Part shown: positions 8,439 to 13,473 of the stretch, piece after piece
Layout: each line of letters starts with the position of its first letter
Numbering within the stretch: position 1 is the first letter of the stretch
The notes under the pieces: generated by a model
What the model saw: the letters and a program-made list of their open reading frames with translations, nothing else
What the model was told of the DNA's origin: nothing
The model's database searches: none
Origin: Escherichia coli
GTDB taxonomy: Bacteria > Pseudomonadota > Gammaproteobacteria > Enterobacterales > Enterobacteriaceae
DNA length: 64,000 nucleotides
Direction: 5' to 3' (one strand)
NCBI RefSeq assembly: GCF_013315695.1
Contig: NZ_CP054353.1
Position numbers and translations under genes: made by a program

Positions 8439-8594
8439 TTACTCCTCAGGTTCGTAAGCTGTGAAGACAGCGACCTCCGTCTGGCCGGTTCGGATTCGTA
8501 CCTCGCAGAGGTCTTTCCTCGTTACCAGTGCCGTCACTATGACGGTTAAACAGATGACGATCAGGGCGATTAACATCGCCTTTTGCTGCTTCAT
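8439..8594 (-). CDS. hokD: Hok-family type I toxin HokD/RelF (51 aa)
   Basis: Manual translation: MKQQK... at 8594 and ...EPEE-stop at 8439; 52 codons; below the ORF-track cutoff. Confidence 0.8.
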   Translation of the reverse strand: MKQQKAMLIALIVICLTVIVTALVTRKDLCEVRIRTGQTEVAVFTAYEPEE

Positions 8595-8665
8595 AGCCTG
8601 CTTCTCCTGTCAACGCAAAGCAGAAGTGTCACCTTCGGTGCGAAACAGAGATGTCATGCTTTGGT

Positions 8666-8953
8666 TCAGAGAATGCGTTTGACCGCCTCGCTATATACTT
8701 CCGAGCGTTCTCTTTTCCCAACAGAAATCACGAAAACGACAACTTTCTCGTCTATAACCTGGTATACAAGGCGATAGCCTGAAGACCGGAGCTTAATCTT
8801 GTAACAATCAGGCATACCACGGAGCTTGTTTGCTTCAATCCGGGGTGACTCAAGTACTTCAACCAGCTTCTTTTTCAACTGTTCACGTACCGTCGAGCCC
8901 AGCTTTCGCCATTCCTTTAGTGCCCGCTCGTCAAAATCCAGAAAATACGCCAT
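8666..8953 (-). CDS. relE: RelE mRNA interferase toxin
   Basis: 95-aa ORF MAYFLDFDERALKEWRKLGSTVREQLKKKL...; start overlaps the relB stop. Confidence 0.9.
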   Translation of the reverse strand: MAYFLDFDERALKEWRKLGSTVREQLKKKLVEVLESPRIEANKLRGMPDCYKIKLRSSGYRLVYQVIDEKVVVFVISVGKRERSEVYSEAVKRIL

Positions 8954-9192
8954 CAGAGTTCATCCAGCGTCACACGTACTGGCTTAGGATTACGAAGCCG
9001 TTCTTTCACTATCTCCACAAGTTCAGCATCTTCATCACTCAGGAGTGTCTGTTTGAACGGCAAGCGTTCATTGTCAGCGATATACTCGAGCATGAGACGA
9101 AGCGCTTCAGAAGGAGTTACACCCATTTTTTCAAGCGCGGCGTAAGAACGCGCTTTAAGTTCATCGTCAATACGCAGGTTAATGCTACCCAT
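8953..9192 (-). CDS. relB: RelB antitoxin
   Basis: 79-aa ORF MGSINLRIDDELKARSYAALEKMGVTPSEALRLML... (ribbon-helix-helix type). Confidence 0.9.
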   Translation of the reverse strand: MGSINLRIDDELKARSYAALEKMGVTPSEALRLMLEYIADNERLPFKQTLLSDEDAELVEIVKERLRNPKPVRVTLDEL

Positions 9193-9203
9193 GTCTTACA
9201 CCT

Positions 9204-9229
9204 CTTGTAATTACAAATGTCATTACAAG
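9204..9229 (-). promoter_or_regulatory. relBE operator region: two adjacent palindromes TTGTAATTACAA and TTGTAATGACAT just upstream of relB
   Basis: Inverted repeats read directly, 12 bp upstream of the relB start codon. Confidence 0.6.
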
Positions 9230-9522
9230 TATCGCACTACAACATGCTTAGGGCAAGTCACGAAGGAAGTCAGAAAGTAGTCGTAAGAACGGTGATCACT
9301 GTCCGCTTTGTGCCAGGAGCAGCCATTGCTAAGTCCATCCTGTATTGTGCAGGTCAGCTCGTTTTTAAAGAGTCCGGCCATCATCTTACTGGTACAGACA
9401 CCATATACTTTGTGACGGTCAGGCTACATATGCACAACTCAACTTATTCATCTATTTTTTGCTTTAGCATGTCAGTGTTGCTTTCTCGTCGGCGGGTGAG
9501 CGGTGACCTGACCTGTCGATAA
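9217..9522 (+). CDS. ydfV: Prophage protein YdfV (hypothetical)
   Basis: 101-aa ORF divergent from relB; positional assignment. Confidence 0.45.
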   Translation: MSLQVSHYNMLRASHEGSQKVVVRTVITVRFVPGAAIAKSILYCAGQLVFKESGHHLTGTDTIYFVTVRLHMHNSTYSSIFCFSMSVLLSRRRVSGDLTCR

Positions 9523-9674
9523 AGGAACGTAACACGTTTTATGCAACACCCGCATGCGGCAGAAAATTATTGCCGAACGTTTACCCCTGTCAACAAGCTT
9601 TACTTTCTGAGGCGCGCCAGCCCGCGAGGAAAACAATCTGAACATCAAACAATTAATGACACAAGAAATACGAT

Positions 9675-9701
9675 TAAAGATTTTTTTGTGCATGCCGATA
9701 G
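9675..9701 (+). promoter_or_regulatory. Sigma-28 (FliA) type promoter: TAAAGATT-N11-GCCGATAG upstream of flxA
   Basis: Match to the class 3 flagellar promoter consensus TAAAGTTT-N11-GCCGATAA read directly; ~25 bp upstream of the flxA start. Confidence 0.6.
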
Positions 9702-9724
9702 TGCTTTTTTAAAAGGAGAAATCT

Positions 9725-10057
9725 ATGTCTGTCACAATTCAGGGAAATACCTCAACCGTTATTTCAAACAACTCCGCCCCGGAAGGAACATCAGAAATAG
9801 CCAAAATCACAAGACAAATTCAGGTGCTGACTGAAAAGCTTGGGAAAATCTCATCGGAAGAGGGGATGACGACACAGCAGAAAAAAGAAATGGCTGCATT
9901 GGTACAGAAGCAAATTGAAAGCCTCTGGGCTCAACTGGAGCAGTTGTTAAGGCAGCAGGCAGAGAAAAAGAATGAAGACGCGACAGTTCAGCCTGATAAA
10001 AAAGAAGAGAAAAAAGACGATACAAATACCGCTGGCACCATTGATATTTACGTCTAA
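9725..10057 (+). CDS. flxA: FlxA (FliA-regulated protein)
   Basis: 110-aa ORF MSVTIQGNTSTVISNNSAPEG... with a coiled-coil-like middle and Lys/Glu-rich tail. Confidence 0.8.
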   Translation: MSVTIQGNTSTVISNNSAPEGTSEIAKITRQIQVLTEKLGKISSEEGMTTQQKKEMAALVQKQIESLWAQLEQLLRQQAEKKNEDATVQPDKKEEKKDDTNTAGTIDIYV

Positions 10058-10429
10058 GTGACAGCCGTATTGTGGCCCTCATCGGGCCACTTTTCGCCAT
10101 CAGCCTTTTCTTTAAAGACATATTATCTTTGTATCATTTCTGATAGTTAACATTACAAGATATAAGTAATGGACGCACTCCCAATTAGTCTATTTAAATC
10201 GCCACGAGTTTAACTGACAACCCATGATCAATTATGAATTGCAACTATTTCTGTAGTCACTTTTGTGGGGACAGTCCACAAAACTGCCAACTTCCGCTTC
10301 TTGCTCTTAGCGGACATTAGCATAGGCTATTTACCATAACGCCTCATTACGCGCACCGCCCAGACTGACTCAGCGCGTTTCTGGCATATCCCCGGTAAAA
10401 CAAGTAACAAACCACCCGAAAATGAACAC

Positions 10430-11900
10430 CAGAAACGCGACTTAAGAATCTACCCTATGAATGGATATGCACTCAACCGAATCGATCTTGGTTTCAATCT
10501 TTTTTATCGGGATCAGGCTTCTTTTTAGGTAACTTCGGGGGCTTAACTTGCTGATGACTTTGCGTTCGGCGCGTAAGCCAGGGATGGTCAGCTTTAGGTT
10601 TAACATAGTATTTTGAGCGTAAATCAATACGGGCATTATCCACTCGTTCATGGACACTCTTTTCATCATCCAGTGGTATAGGCTCCGGGCCATCAACATA
10701 CTTTTCCCAGCCCAGCGCTTTCCCGTCATACAGAACGTTAATTTCACCGTCAAAGTTCTCGCATACAGTAACAACCGAATGCCTAAGTCGATATCCCCGG
10801 CCCTCACTGCGTACCTGAAACGCACTGCTTTTGTACTGGAAAGTGAGATTTTTAGACAGAACGCGCTTCGCCTGTAGGCTGAAGATATAACCCAGTTCCT
10901 CTTCAGAATGGTGCACATCAAGATGAGCATTATCAGTAGTACGAGGCGACGTAGCGAACCGGTTGTTATAGGCTTCAATAAAGGTCGGCAACCATGCATT
11001 TGCTGTTTCAATATCACTGATATTCTGAAGCCGCATTTCTTTGACCAGCCTGTCCTGTAGTGTCTGATTGGCGCGCTCTACCCGCCCTTTTGCCTGCGGG
11101 CTGTTGGCATGGATTGGCTCGATGCCCAGTGTCTTTATCGCACGAGTGAACTGGGTCAGCTCACCTTCCCGCTCTGGGTTATTTACCCTGAATATACTGT
11201 GTCTATCAGAGTAGAGAGCGAGCGGTACGCCATGATCATTAAGGTAACCCCGGAGGGTTTCCATGTAAGCCCGGGTTGTTTCAGCAGGCACAAAACGCAA
11301 CGCCATCAACGCACTGGTGGCATCATCAATGAAAACGATCAGTGTACATCTGGGGCCTCGATTTTCAAACCAGTCATGAGGTGAGCCATCAATCTGGATC
11401 AGTTCACCGTAAGATGGTCGTCGCATGCGGCGTTGATATATACGGGCAATTTTACGACGGCGTTCACGCCATAACCCCTCTTCTATCATCCACTTTCTGA
11501 GAGTTTCAACGGATAAAGATAAACCGTGTATCTCGCGCAATTTTTCGCACGCAAACGTAGGTCCAAAATCAGCGTAACGGCCTTTGAGGAGTGAAATTAC
11601 TGTTGCTCTGAATTCAGTAGAAAAGGAATTATTAGGACGCTTTCCACGTCGGTGGGAAACCAGAGCAGAAGGCCCTTCATTTCTATACCGTTGCACCAGA
11701 CGTTTAACCTGCCGAATAGAAATGCCAATGCGTGCCGCAGCTTGTTCCTGAATAATCTGAAGTCGGTGGAGTTCCTTATGACTCATCGTAACAGTCTCTT
11801 TGATCATGAAAAATCCCCCAGAGAATTGTCTGGGGACATTTTAGAATGGTTCAAAGGGGACATTACAGCTTGGTGTTAACAATAGCCTGCTTCTCCGTGC
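10430..11900 (-). mobile_element. Probable insertion sequence carrying a single DDE (rve-type) transposase; boundaries approximate
   Basis: Single 437-aa transposase ORF flanked by non-coding DNA with GGGGACA-type repeats and a candidate imperfect terminal repeat (AGGCTATT... at ~10330 and ~11885); ends not resolved. Confidence 0.4.
10494..11807 (-). CDS. DDE transposase, integrase-core (rve) type with N-terminal HTH (IS481/ISNCY-like)
   Basis: 437-aa ORF with N-terminal HTH (AARIGISIRQVKRLVQRY) and core ...IDGSPHDWF...FIDDATS...YSDRHSIF...SPQAKGRVERANQTLQDRL... Confidence 0.6.
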   Translation of the reverse strand: MIKETVTMSHKELHRLQIIQEQAAARIGISIRQVKRLVQRYRNEGPSALVSHRRGKRPNNSFSTEFRATVISLLKGRYADFGPTFACEKLREIHGLSLSVETLRKWMIEEGLWRERRRKIARIYQRRMRRPSYGELIQIDGSPHDWFENRGPRCTLIVFIDDATSALMALRFVPAETTRAYMETLRGYLNDHGVPLALYSDRHSIFRVNNPEREGELTQFTRAIKTLGIEPIHANSPQAKGRVERANQTLQDRLVKEMRLQNISDIETANAWLPTFIEAYNNRFATSPRTTDNAHLDVHHSEEELGYIFSLQAKRVLSKNLTFQYKSSAFQVRSEGRGYRLRHSVVTVCENFDGEINVLYDGKALGWEKYVDGPEPIPLDDEKSVHERVDNARIDLRSKYYVKPKADHPWLTRRTQSHQQVKPPKLPKKKPDPDKKD

Positions 11901-12141
11901 CTTTCGGCACGTAAGAGGCTAACCTACATGTGTCTAGCATGAAATTGGCCTCAGATTAATGTTAAGCGTCTTGCAGGACGCGTAATGTTAACTGGGGCTT
12001 TTCTCTATCTGCCGTTGGTGTCCATGCCCGAGGCAGATAGCCTCAAGCACCCGCAGTCATTCTACTTAACTAAGATTTCCCCGCAAACCGTTTTTGTCCA
12101 GCACAGTAAATATCCAACTAAACCAATGGAGTTCGCTGTAT

Positions 12142-12321
12142 TTACCGCCAGTATTCAATGCACATGACCGCCATGAACACCCCTAAAAAAAGGGCATTTA
12201 TATATCCAAATATTAATATCAAAACATCAACTTTTTCCATATACCTTGCTGTGAAGATGATGGGCATACATGATGCGAACAACCAGAACGCAACAAACAA
12301 AAACTGCAATGCGTTTTTCAT
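12142..12321 (-). CDS. Small hydrophobic two-TM protein (59 aa), hypothetical
   Basis: ORF 12142..12360; internal start MKNALQFLFVAFWLFASCMPIIFTARYMEKVDVLILIFGYINALFLGVFMAVMCIEYWR preceded by a strong AGGAGG Shine-Dalgarno. Confidence 0.4.
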   Translation of the reverse strand: MKNALQFLFVAFWLFASCMPIIFTARYMEKVDVLILIFGYINALFLGVFMAVMCIEYWR

Positions 12322-13473
12322 TATTCCTCCTACAATCAATGTGCAATTACATTTAAACACACCTCAATTTGGCCGGACATATAAATATCTAAACCAGAAA
12401 AAATCACTTACATAGCGTTACAAACTCTTTAGTCTAAAGGTTCATCGTAAAACATTCCCCATACTTATCAGTCCGTTCCGCGCCAGGTAGCTCATTGCCT
12501 TATCTGGCAACCTGTAATCAGGTTTCCGCTTTTTCAGTTGGCTGGTCGTTTAACCGACATAGTTAATCCATTAATCTAGTTGCCGGATGTTGGTGGATTT
12601 TCGCGTTTTAGTTGTTCATAAAAGTGCACAGCTTTAACCAGTTCTTCTGATGTAACTGGGACTGGTGAGGCAGTGAATAAGGCCTGAATTTGATAGTTCG
12701 GCCTGTCGTTACAATCCTCTTTTTTCGGTACATATTTCCAGTCACCAGACCACTACTTCCCCTGAAAGTCCGTAACGCCTTTTTTTACGTAGCGATATCG
12801 CCATGCCACTGGTTTTGCTTGCCCCGCCGTTTCATGCCCTTCCTGATAATTAATCTCGCTCATTCATCGCCCCACTCATCACAATATGCTTCGACCGGAG
12901 TTTTTCCCGCTTCATAGTCATCACGCTAGGATTCGACATCAGCAGCACTTCCACCGCGTAACTCACCATAGTCCATTAATAGTTCATCCCGCTCTTCAAA
13001 ACTGATGTTATATTTAGCTGAACAAAAATCAGCCACTTTGTTCTTCCTCATCGTCTTTTATTTCGTGGTATGAGTAATTGCAGTAGTTAAAGAAAATTTC
13101 TTATGCTCCGTCATGAATTTCCTCAGGTGTTGCGTCATCGTCCACTTCGAATACATCCTCAAAATCTCCACCAGCTATTCCCGTTTCAATAATAATTTTG
13201 AACTTTCGCATTTCACTACCGCCCTTTCGGGCGGCCTCCTGATGTTCTGAGGGTGCAGAAATCCATCCGGTTAAGGATTAAATTTTATTTACAGAACTGA
13301 ATTTAATTATTCAGATATACGTATCTGTAGCCTTACGAATCTACTCACTGGATGCCTCTTTCATAAAAATAATCCAGTGGGTTTTATCGTTTTTTCCCTG
13401 TTCGTTGACAGATAACAGGTTTTCTGTCTGTCAGTGCCAGAATCTGGCTTACCGGTATTTGCGTTTCATTCCA

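Follow-up and report, generated by a model that had tools for sequence, protein, structure and literature searches.

A probable unannotated gene for a small two-helix membrane protein beside a hok leader in a Qin-like prophage of Escherichia coli

The 64,000-nucleotide stretch of Escherichia coli DNA analysed here in full (the window; assembly GCF_013315695.1, contig NZ_CP054353.1) carries at 12142..12321, on the minus strand, an open reading frame of 59 codons followed by TAA, which we call ORF59 (product MKNALQFLFVAFWLFASCMPIIFTARYMEKVDVLILIFGYINALFLGVFMAVMCIEYWR). We consider it highly likely that ORF59 is a genuine coding gene, and it is the coding test across two diverged lineages that lifts it above a chance reading frame. 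Our preferred reading, to which we give a probability of roughly 0.6 (the reality of the gene being counted in), is that the gene encodes an accessory, non-addictive membrane protein rather than a dedicated toxin. It belongs to an orphan family of two lineages confined to the mobile DNA of E. coli and Shigella; the family is unnamed and uncharacterised, and it adds to a familiar class of small, hydrophobic accessory proteins encoded by prophages. Of 5426 complete E. coli genomes, 1567 (about 29%) have the region with ORF59 (lineage A) and 1045 (about 19%) have its paralogue (lineage B), yet RefSeq/PGAP shows no feature on either gene in any record examined, and standard annotation pipelines very probably miss the ORF59 gene. 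In itself ORF59 is unsurprising, uncharacterised small hydrophobic prophage proteins being common. It does provide a concrete case of short prophage membrane-protein genes escaping annotation, with the phage records apparently annotating the wrong strand, and an inexpensive candidate for functional screens of small proteins, be it for toxicity, for phage exclusion or for membrane partners.

The frame runs from the ATG at 12321-12319 to the TAA at 12144-12142, as read from both the ORF list and the sequence; the 59-aa frame and peptide reported in a first-pass annotation of this DNA are correct, and the strand is minus. The start region, 5'-GTAGGAGGAATAATG-3', has a Shine-Dalgarno AGGAGG at 12331-12326 on the minus strand, 4 nt (AATA) 5' of the ATG. 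This ribosome-binding site had been described as optimally spaced: the site is indeed there and within the functional range, but its spacing lies at the short end of that range. AGGAGG is unvaried across all pattern-independent copies of ORF59, and the lineage-B paralogue has only a weak Shine-Dalgarno of the AGGGA type. Because AGGAGG-N3-9-ATG occurs in the window about as often as in shuffled sequences (2 observed, 2.5 ± 2.0 in shuffles), and so is no rarer than chance, the Shine-Dalgarno is supportive, not decisive. A 72-aa form starting at an upstream GTG (12360) was considered and rejected, since that start has no ribosome-binding site and the extension is unconserved in the paralogue.

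The evidence that carries the coding assignment comes from lineage B (P0037/P0042), detected with HMMER. Its product is 59 aa long, aligns without gaps to ORF59 at 41% identity and shares the position of the stop. At the DNA level, BLASTN aligns the two lineages as a gapless 202-nt block of 60% identity that opens with the ATG and extends 22 nt beyond the stop; the alignable tail of ~22 nt after the ORF59 stop (12120..12141, minus strand) marks the outer edge of DNA homology between the lineages. The 74 differences within the ORF fall 25, 18 and 31 times at codon positions 1, 2 and 3, most often at the third, and Nei-Gojobori counting gives pN = 0.35 and pS = 0.70 (dN/dS about 0.24). If the same 74 substitutions are instead placed at random in the ORF, as expected for neutral relocation, the probability of creating no stop is 0.021, that of retaining an amino acid identity at least as high as observed is 0.009, and the joint probability is 0.00045. 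We also compared all six frames: the ORF59 frame alone is open in both lineages, while the other five have stops in at least one of them. Frame, length and stop are preserved and nonsynonymous changes are fewer than synonymous ones, a pattern that points to purifying selection on ORF59 between the lineages in what is a single deep comparison of two lineages within one species group. Conservation of the frame, on which the first-pass annotation had made its reading depend, was accordingly found, together with a coding signal. The codon phase agrees, with T at 53% of second positions and 24% of third positions, a bias tied to codon phase, as membrane-protein coding produces and general AT-richness does not.

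The window represents a Qin-like lambdoid prophage of E. coli, with ORF59 in the nin-like part of the early-right operon. Along the minus strand the order is dicC (cro-like), a YdaT/cII-like gene, an O-like replication gene, DUF977, a SAM methyltransferase, decayed small genes, ORF59 and a hok leader, and in intact relatives ORF59 is followed downstream by hok, rem, ydfU, rusA and Q. The earlier placement of the frame in a prophage early region holds, given that ORF59 is co-directional with dicC, the YdaT/cII-like gene, the O-like replication gene, DUF977 and the methyltransferase gene and stands upstream of Q in those relatives. The stretch around it matches phage PhiR42_1 (from ECOR13), and also many E. 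coli chromosomes, at 100% identity. The small genes immediately 5' of ORF59 (12442-12863, minus strand) consist of a PGAP frameshifted/internal-stop pseudogene and a DUF7167 pseudogene, and compared with phage vB_EcoS-640R1 the window has a 57-bp insertion at about 12505-12561 (alignment columns 183-239). Together these features indicate partial decay of the early operon in this prophage. Crude scans for promoters and terminators around lineage A returned neither, with no promoter-like site on either strand within 11800-13000, and around lineage B they gave nothing above background.

The same segment also appears in a Klebsiella oxytoca record, NZ_CP069920.1 ('plasmid unnamed9', 9.5 kb, linear), which reads ORF59-hokD-rem-DUF968-Q, carries E. 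coli WP_ protein accessions and shows the intact arrangement without the insertion described below. This record is either a contaminant, a phage fragment or a recent transfer. A third lineage in K. oxytoca was rejected on the same grounds, the copy being lineage A on a linear contig with E. coli proteins.

Lineage B resides elsewhere, in the interval from ttcA to uspF/ompN, where it adjoins an integrase remnant and fragments of sitD; we take this interval to be the Rac attachment region. In E. coli strains without Rac (eight loci, L086-L093) it sits in a remnant of ~2 kb of the ttcA-uspF interval, with the integrase fragment and sitD (ABC-3) fragments; one of these loci (L092) has a complete sitABCD-like operon beyond the integrase fragment as seen from the lineage-B gene.

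The homology search that had been proposed for the 59-aa peptide does find relatives, in two lineages only, and matches no toxin, holin or defence family. Specifically, Pfam, PHROGs, NCBIfam and PADLOC give no match to ORF59 even at E ≤ 10, and the PADLOC models of anti-phage defence proteins match neither lineage; a profile search of the PDB gives nothing, and Foldseek against viral structures returns generic hairpins only, every E above 1. An exhaustive HMMER search of 1.84 billion representative proteins finds no family members beyond the two lineages, and a word-index search finds near-identical E. coli/Shigella sequences only, many of them frameshifted or truncated. The GenBank and UniProt entries for the peptide, from E. 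coli and four Shigella species (S. dysenteriae, S. flexneri, S. sonnei, S. boydii), are labelled 'hypothetical protein' or 'membrane protein' only. A literature search found neither lineage's peptide mentioned and nothing relevant on ORFs upstream of hok. When 100,044 species genomes were scanned with a degenerate pattern, a single contig matched, at 100% identity: JAIJJM010000167.1, a 5.5-kb contig in a metagenome-assembled genome (MAG) of 'Collinsella sp.', which almost certainly comes from an E. coli prophage and was mis-binned there.

The predicted protein is very hydrophobic, with a GRAVY of 1.27 compared with 0.60 for composition-matched shuffles. Hydropathy gives two hydrophobic segments in both lineages (about residues 3-25 and 33-55 in ORF59) separated by a short polar loop, and AlphaFold, run on a 13-sequence alignment of the two lineages, places helices at residues 2-26 and 31-58 with a mean pLDDT of 74; the two-helix description given earlier agrees with both. 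The N-terminus is basic (K2, or R2-K3) and the loop is neutral or acidic in the two lineages, which by the positive-inside rule would correspond to an N-in/C-in topology. The product is accordingly modelled as an inner-membrane helical hairpin, N-in/C-in, with a predicted periplasmic loop of ~5-7 residues. The residues that are invariant or nearly so across the lineages (W13, S17, C18, P20-I21-I22, T24, Y27, F38-G39, N42-A43-L44, G47-V48-F49, I55-E56, W58-R59) are mostly non-aliphatic, and the C-terminal E-x-W-R is conserved. Helix 2 has a conserved, glycine-zipper-like face, A43xxxG47xxx(A/S)51, next to a buried Asn42. Patterns of this type are typical of tightly packed or oligomeric transmembrane helices; together with the buried Asn, this one leaves room for an oligomeric pore but does not establish it.

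From these observations a mode of action can be proposed for an accessory membrane protein. With no promoter detected for lineage A, ORF59 would most likely depend on read-through transcription of the repressor-controlled early operon. It would then be expressed upon derepression of the prophage, when the strong ribosome-binding site should allow efficient translation. The product would insert into the inner membrane as the N-in/C-in hairpin. The conserved residues and the A43xxxG47xxx(A/S)51 face suggest that it might act by helix-helix association in the membrane, either with itself or with a host or phage membrane protein. The outcome could be a harmless modulation (e.g., exclusion or regulation) or membrane damage.

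The best-surviving alternative, which we nevertheless regard as rather unlikely, is that ORF59 is a membrane-damaging toxin, a two-helix former of pores or lesions that depolarises or permeabilises the inner membrane in the manner of GhoT/OrtT, type I toxins, pinholins or viroporins. Its size, hydrophobicity and two-helix hairpin are what such a toxin would have, as are the conserved AxxxGxxx(A/S) motif, the buried Asn42 and a kink at Pro20, since glycine-zipper-like motifs, buried Asn residues and Pro kinks are enriched in oligomeric channel-formers. Its location also fits, because repressor-controlled prophage early operons are the home of Kil, DicB and YdfD, and because hok/sok physically adjoins it. 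Each of the known systems nevertheless differs from ORF59. GhoT and OrtT of E. coli, 57-aa toxins with two transmembrane helices (one from a type V toxin-antitoxin system, one an orphan), resemble it in size, hairpin, few charged residues and enterobacterial origin, and by analogy their membrane-lesion action could be shared; however, there is no sequence, Pfam or NCBIfam match at E ≤ 10, and ORF59 has no GhoS-like partner and is located in prophages and islands. The Hok/Gef type I toxins are likewise small hydrophobic peptides enriched in prophages, and Hok ancestrally lies directly downstream of ORF59. But Hok has one helix and a periplasmic, Cys-containing tail, an elaborate mRNA leader and the antisense RNA Sok, whereas ORF59 has no Pfam match at E ≤ 10, two predicted helices, a free strong ribosome-binding site and no detected antisense partner, and the two genes occur independently; the sok match at 12052-11882 lies downstream of ORF59 and belongs to the hok locus, so that no mok/sok leader is attached to ORF59.

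Class II holins and the pinholin S21 share with ORF59 a length of ~60-70 aa, two transmembrane helices and a lambdoid origin. Holin genes, however, are part of the lysis cassette, which follows Q, and their products carry a charged tail at the C-terminus, often together with a dual start. ORF59 instead lies upstream of Q, between the replication genes and hok, ends in EYWR, shows neither a holin-type tail nor a dual start and finds no match in PHROGs or Pfam. Lambda Kil, Rac KilR, Qin DicB and YdfD are also small accessory genes of repressor-controlled early operons in similar prophages; they are not homologous to ORF59, and their products are soluble or cross the membrane once and act on known targets in the cytoskeleton or in biosynthesis. 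Phage-encoded small membrane proteins that prevent superinfection (e.g., T4 Imm) or modulate membrane proteins of the host resemble ORF59 as short hairpin or single-pass accessory proteins, again with no homology, and unlike exclusion genes expressed in the lysogen, lineage A apparently has no promoter of its own.

Two further observations speak against a dedicated toxin. We found no antisense RNA, structured leader or partner gene common to both lineages; in crude scans, the promoter-like sites antisense to the lineage-B gene are not above shuffle expectation and are unconserved in lineage A. In addition, the lineage-B gene has stayed intact while standing alone in a decayed island, where neither a repressor nor an antitoxin is close by; if it is expressed there, strong toxicity is difficult to square with this. 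A more adventurous version, which we hold to be doubtful, would make ORF59 and its paralogue the first of an undescribed family of two-helix glycine-zipper pore-formers ('viroporin-like') that collapse the membrane potential early in lytic development, or else would couple them to hok/sok, for example by modulating Hok insertion or by coming under the control of Sok read-through.

It is improbable, by our estimate, that ORF59 is non-functional, i.e., a fortuitous frame in an AT-rich spacer whose apparent conservation comes from the youth of the segment, from hitch-hiking with hok/sok or from constraint on the DNA or RNA. This alternative draws on the variation within lineages, on the lack of a PGAP call, on the Shine-Dalgarno statistics given above and on base composition, because an AT-rich region (33-38% GC) in itself favours hydrophobic codons, as the shuffles show. 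We analysed diversity in 72 IMG/VR loci picked out by a DNA pattern of 25 nt at the ribosome-binding site and start, with no selection on the peptide; this set replaced an earlier one of 80 IMG/VR loci that had been chosen by peptide identity and was biased. ORF59 is intact in 71 of the 72 copies, the exception (L107) being truncated. All seven segregating sites in lineage A are nonsynonymous (A16V, M28I, V31I, I37M, Y40H, L44I, F49S), as are both ORF changes among nine loci of lineage B. A synonymous excess within lineages is therefore absent, but the counts are too small for significance and do not demonstrate purifying selection on the protein over the short term. The lineage-A substitutions are mostly conservative hydrophobic swaps, and two of them, I37M and Y40H, reproduce the residues of lineage B. 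Frameshift variants also exist in public data (P0019, P0021-P0025), at a T7 homopolymer at 12185..12191 (minus strand; codons 44-46, CTT TTT TTA) that forms a frameshift hot spot giving alternative C-termini, and there are variants with junctions in the middle of the ORF.

Several observations count against a non-functional frame. Nucleotide diversity (π) is 0.0047 in ORF59, compared with 0.038 in its upstream flank, 0.016 in the spacer between ORF59 and the hok promoter and 0.058 in the hok leader. In a sliding window, the diversity trough extends from about −41 to +183, fitting the borders of ribosome-binding site plus ORF59, and diversity climbs right after the stop; a second trough lies over the inferred hok promoter. 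Between the lineages, frame, length and stop are kept over 42% nucleotide divergence with the homology bounded by the ORF (joint P about 0.0005), and the third-position excess and the phase-specific bias for T at second positions also count against it. A structured RNA was considered as the cause of the conservation and rejected, as no Rfam family covers ORF59 and its predicted fold is unremarkable (z = −1.2).

A last alternative, that the real gene is an antisense ORF of 83-85 aa on the plus strand (12158-12415), is hardly credible: it is longer than ORF59 and is called in phage annotations, but it has two stops in the homologous block of lineage B, no Shine-Dalgarno and an N-rich low-complexity translation, and it overlaps the ribosome-binding site of ORF59. 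Only three phage records contain the ORF59 region (PhiR42_1 and vB_EcoS-640R1/813R8), and all of them annotate this antisense ORF (85 aa), as 'hypothetical protein' or, as in vB_EcoS-640R1, 'hornerin'; this is almost certainly a mis-annotation.

The favoured accessory gene has a conspicuous neighbour. Around ORF59, Rfam detects only the mRNA leader and sok region of a hok gene (11882..12052, minus strand; RF01794, 104 bits, E = 6e-24). A putative hok promoter (TTGCGG, 16 nt, TAGAAT) can be read from the sequence at 12059..12086 on the same strand, with the 5' end of the mRNA placed at 12052 by the start of the Rfam model, and ORF59 ends ~90 nt 5' of this transcript start. Among the distinct IMG/VR contexts that extend far enough downstream, 36 of 54 have an intact Hok gene right after the leader, which indicates that ORF59 followed by hok/sok is the ancestral arrangement; the hok locus is intact in phage vB_EcoS-640R1, for example. 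The two loci are nevertheless separable. The hokW locus of phage 933W has only the promoter and leader in common with the window and lacks ORF59, and lineage B has no hok leader, so that ORF59 is a neighbour and not a component of hok/sok, which is a separate, independently mobile locus.

In the window the orphan hok leader beside ORF59 lacks its coding sequence, and an identical Hok is the product of hokD, a gene that lies 3.3 kb away and follows relBE. The two parts are separated by a mobile unit of 3274 bp (8608-11881) that contains relE, relB, ydfV, flxA, ydfW and a gene for a 437-aa transposase with HTH and rve_3 matches. The unit is flanked by exact 15-bp direct repeats (8593-8607 and 11882-11896), a target-site duplication, and its ends are imperfect inverted repeats with 22 of 30 matches (TGTCAACGCAAAGC... 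/ ...GGTGTTAACA), both beginning with TGT. It is inserted between the Shine-Dalgarno and the ATG of hok, splitting the leader (12052-11882) from the hokD coding sequence (8594-8439). Its TGT ends and its duplication fit the ISTde1-type of the IS1202 family, for which TGT ends and 15-17-bp duplications are described; the ISfinder entry for ISEsa1 gives 1609 bp and no detectable target-site duplication.

Units 99.5-99.8% identical to this one are present on plasmids of Enterobacter, Salmonella and E. coli (five loci, L168-L172), where they are annotated as 'IS1202-like element ISEsa1 family transposase' with flxA-like, ydfV, relB and relE genes. The five plasmid junctions represent at least three further insertion events, each at the Shine-Dalgarno/ATG of a hok-family gene and always in the same orientation, which points to transposition targeted to hok genes. 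It also suggests an origin for the relB-relE-hokD operon, namely the insertion of a transporter IS with relBE as cargo into a hok locus. If true, such targeting would account for how the classic relB-relE-hokD (relBEF) operon came about and would be a new target specificity in a family already known for site-specific insertion. Insertion at the start codon of hok by an IS1202-family unit may matter more than ORF59 itself. In the literature, we found no description of hok targeting, of a target preference of ISEsa1 or of relBE as its cargo.

The plasmid targets are of two kinds, and their target-site duplications differ, with lengths of 14-16 bp. One is a pndA-like gene (MPQRTF...), with the target-site duplication TGGAGGGGCTATGAT, and the others are hok-R1-like genes (MKLPRN...), with duplications of 14 and 16 bp. 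Two of the plasmid loci were scanned with Rfam: L168 has a hok leader on the far side of the unit, and L169 has none at the gathering threshold. In one plasmid copy the flanks do not match, which may suggest recombination between two such insertions.
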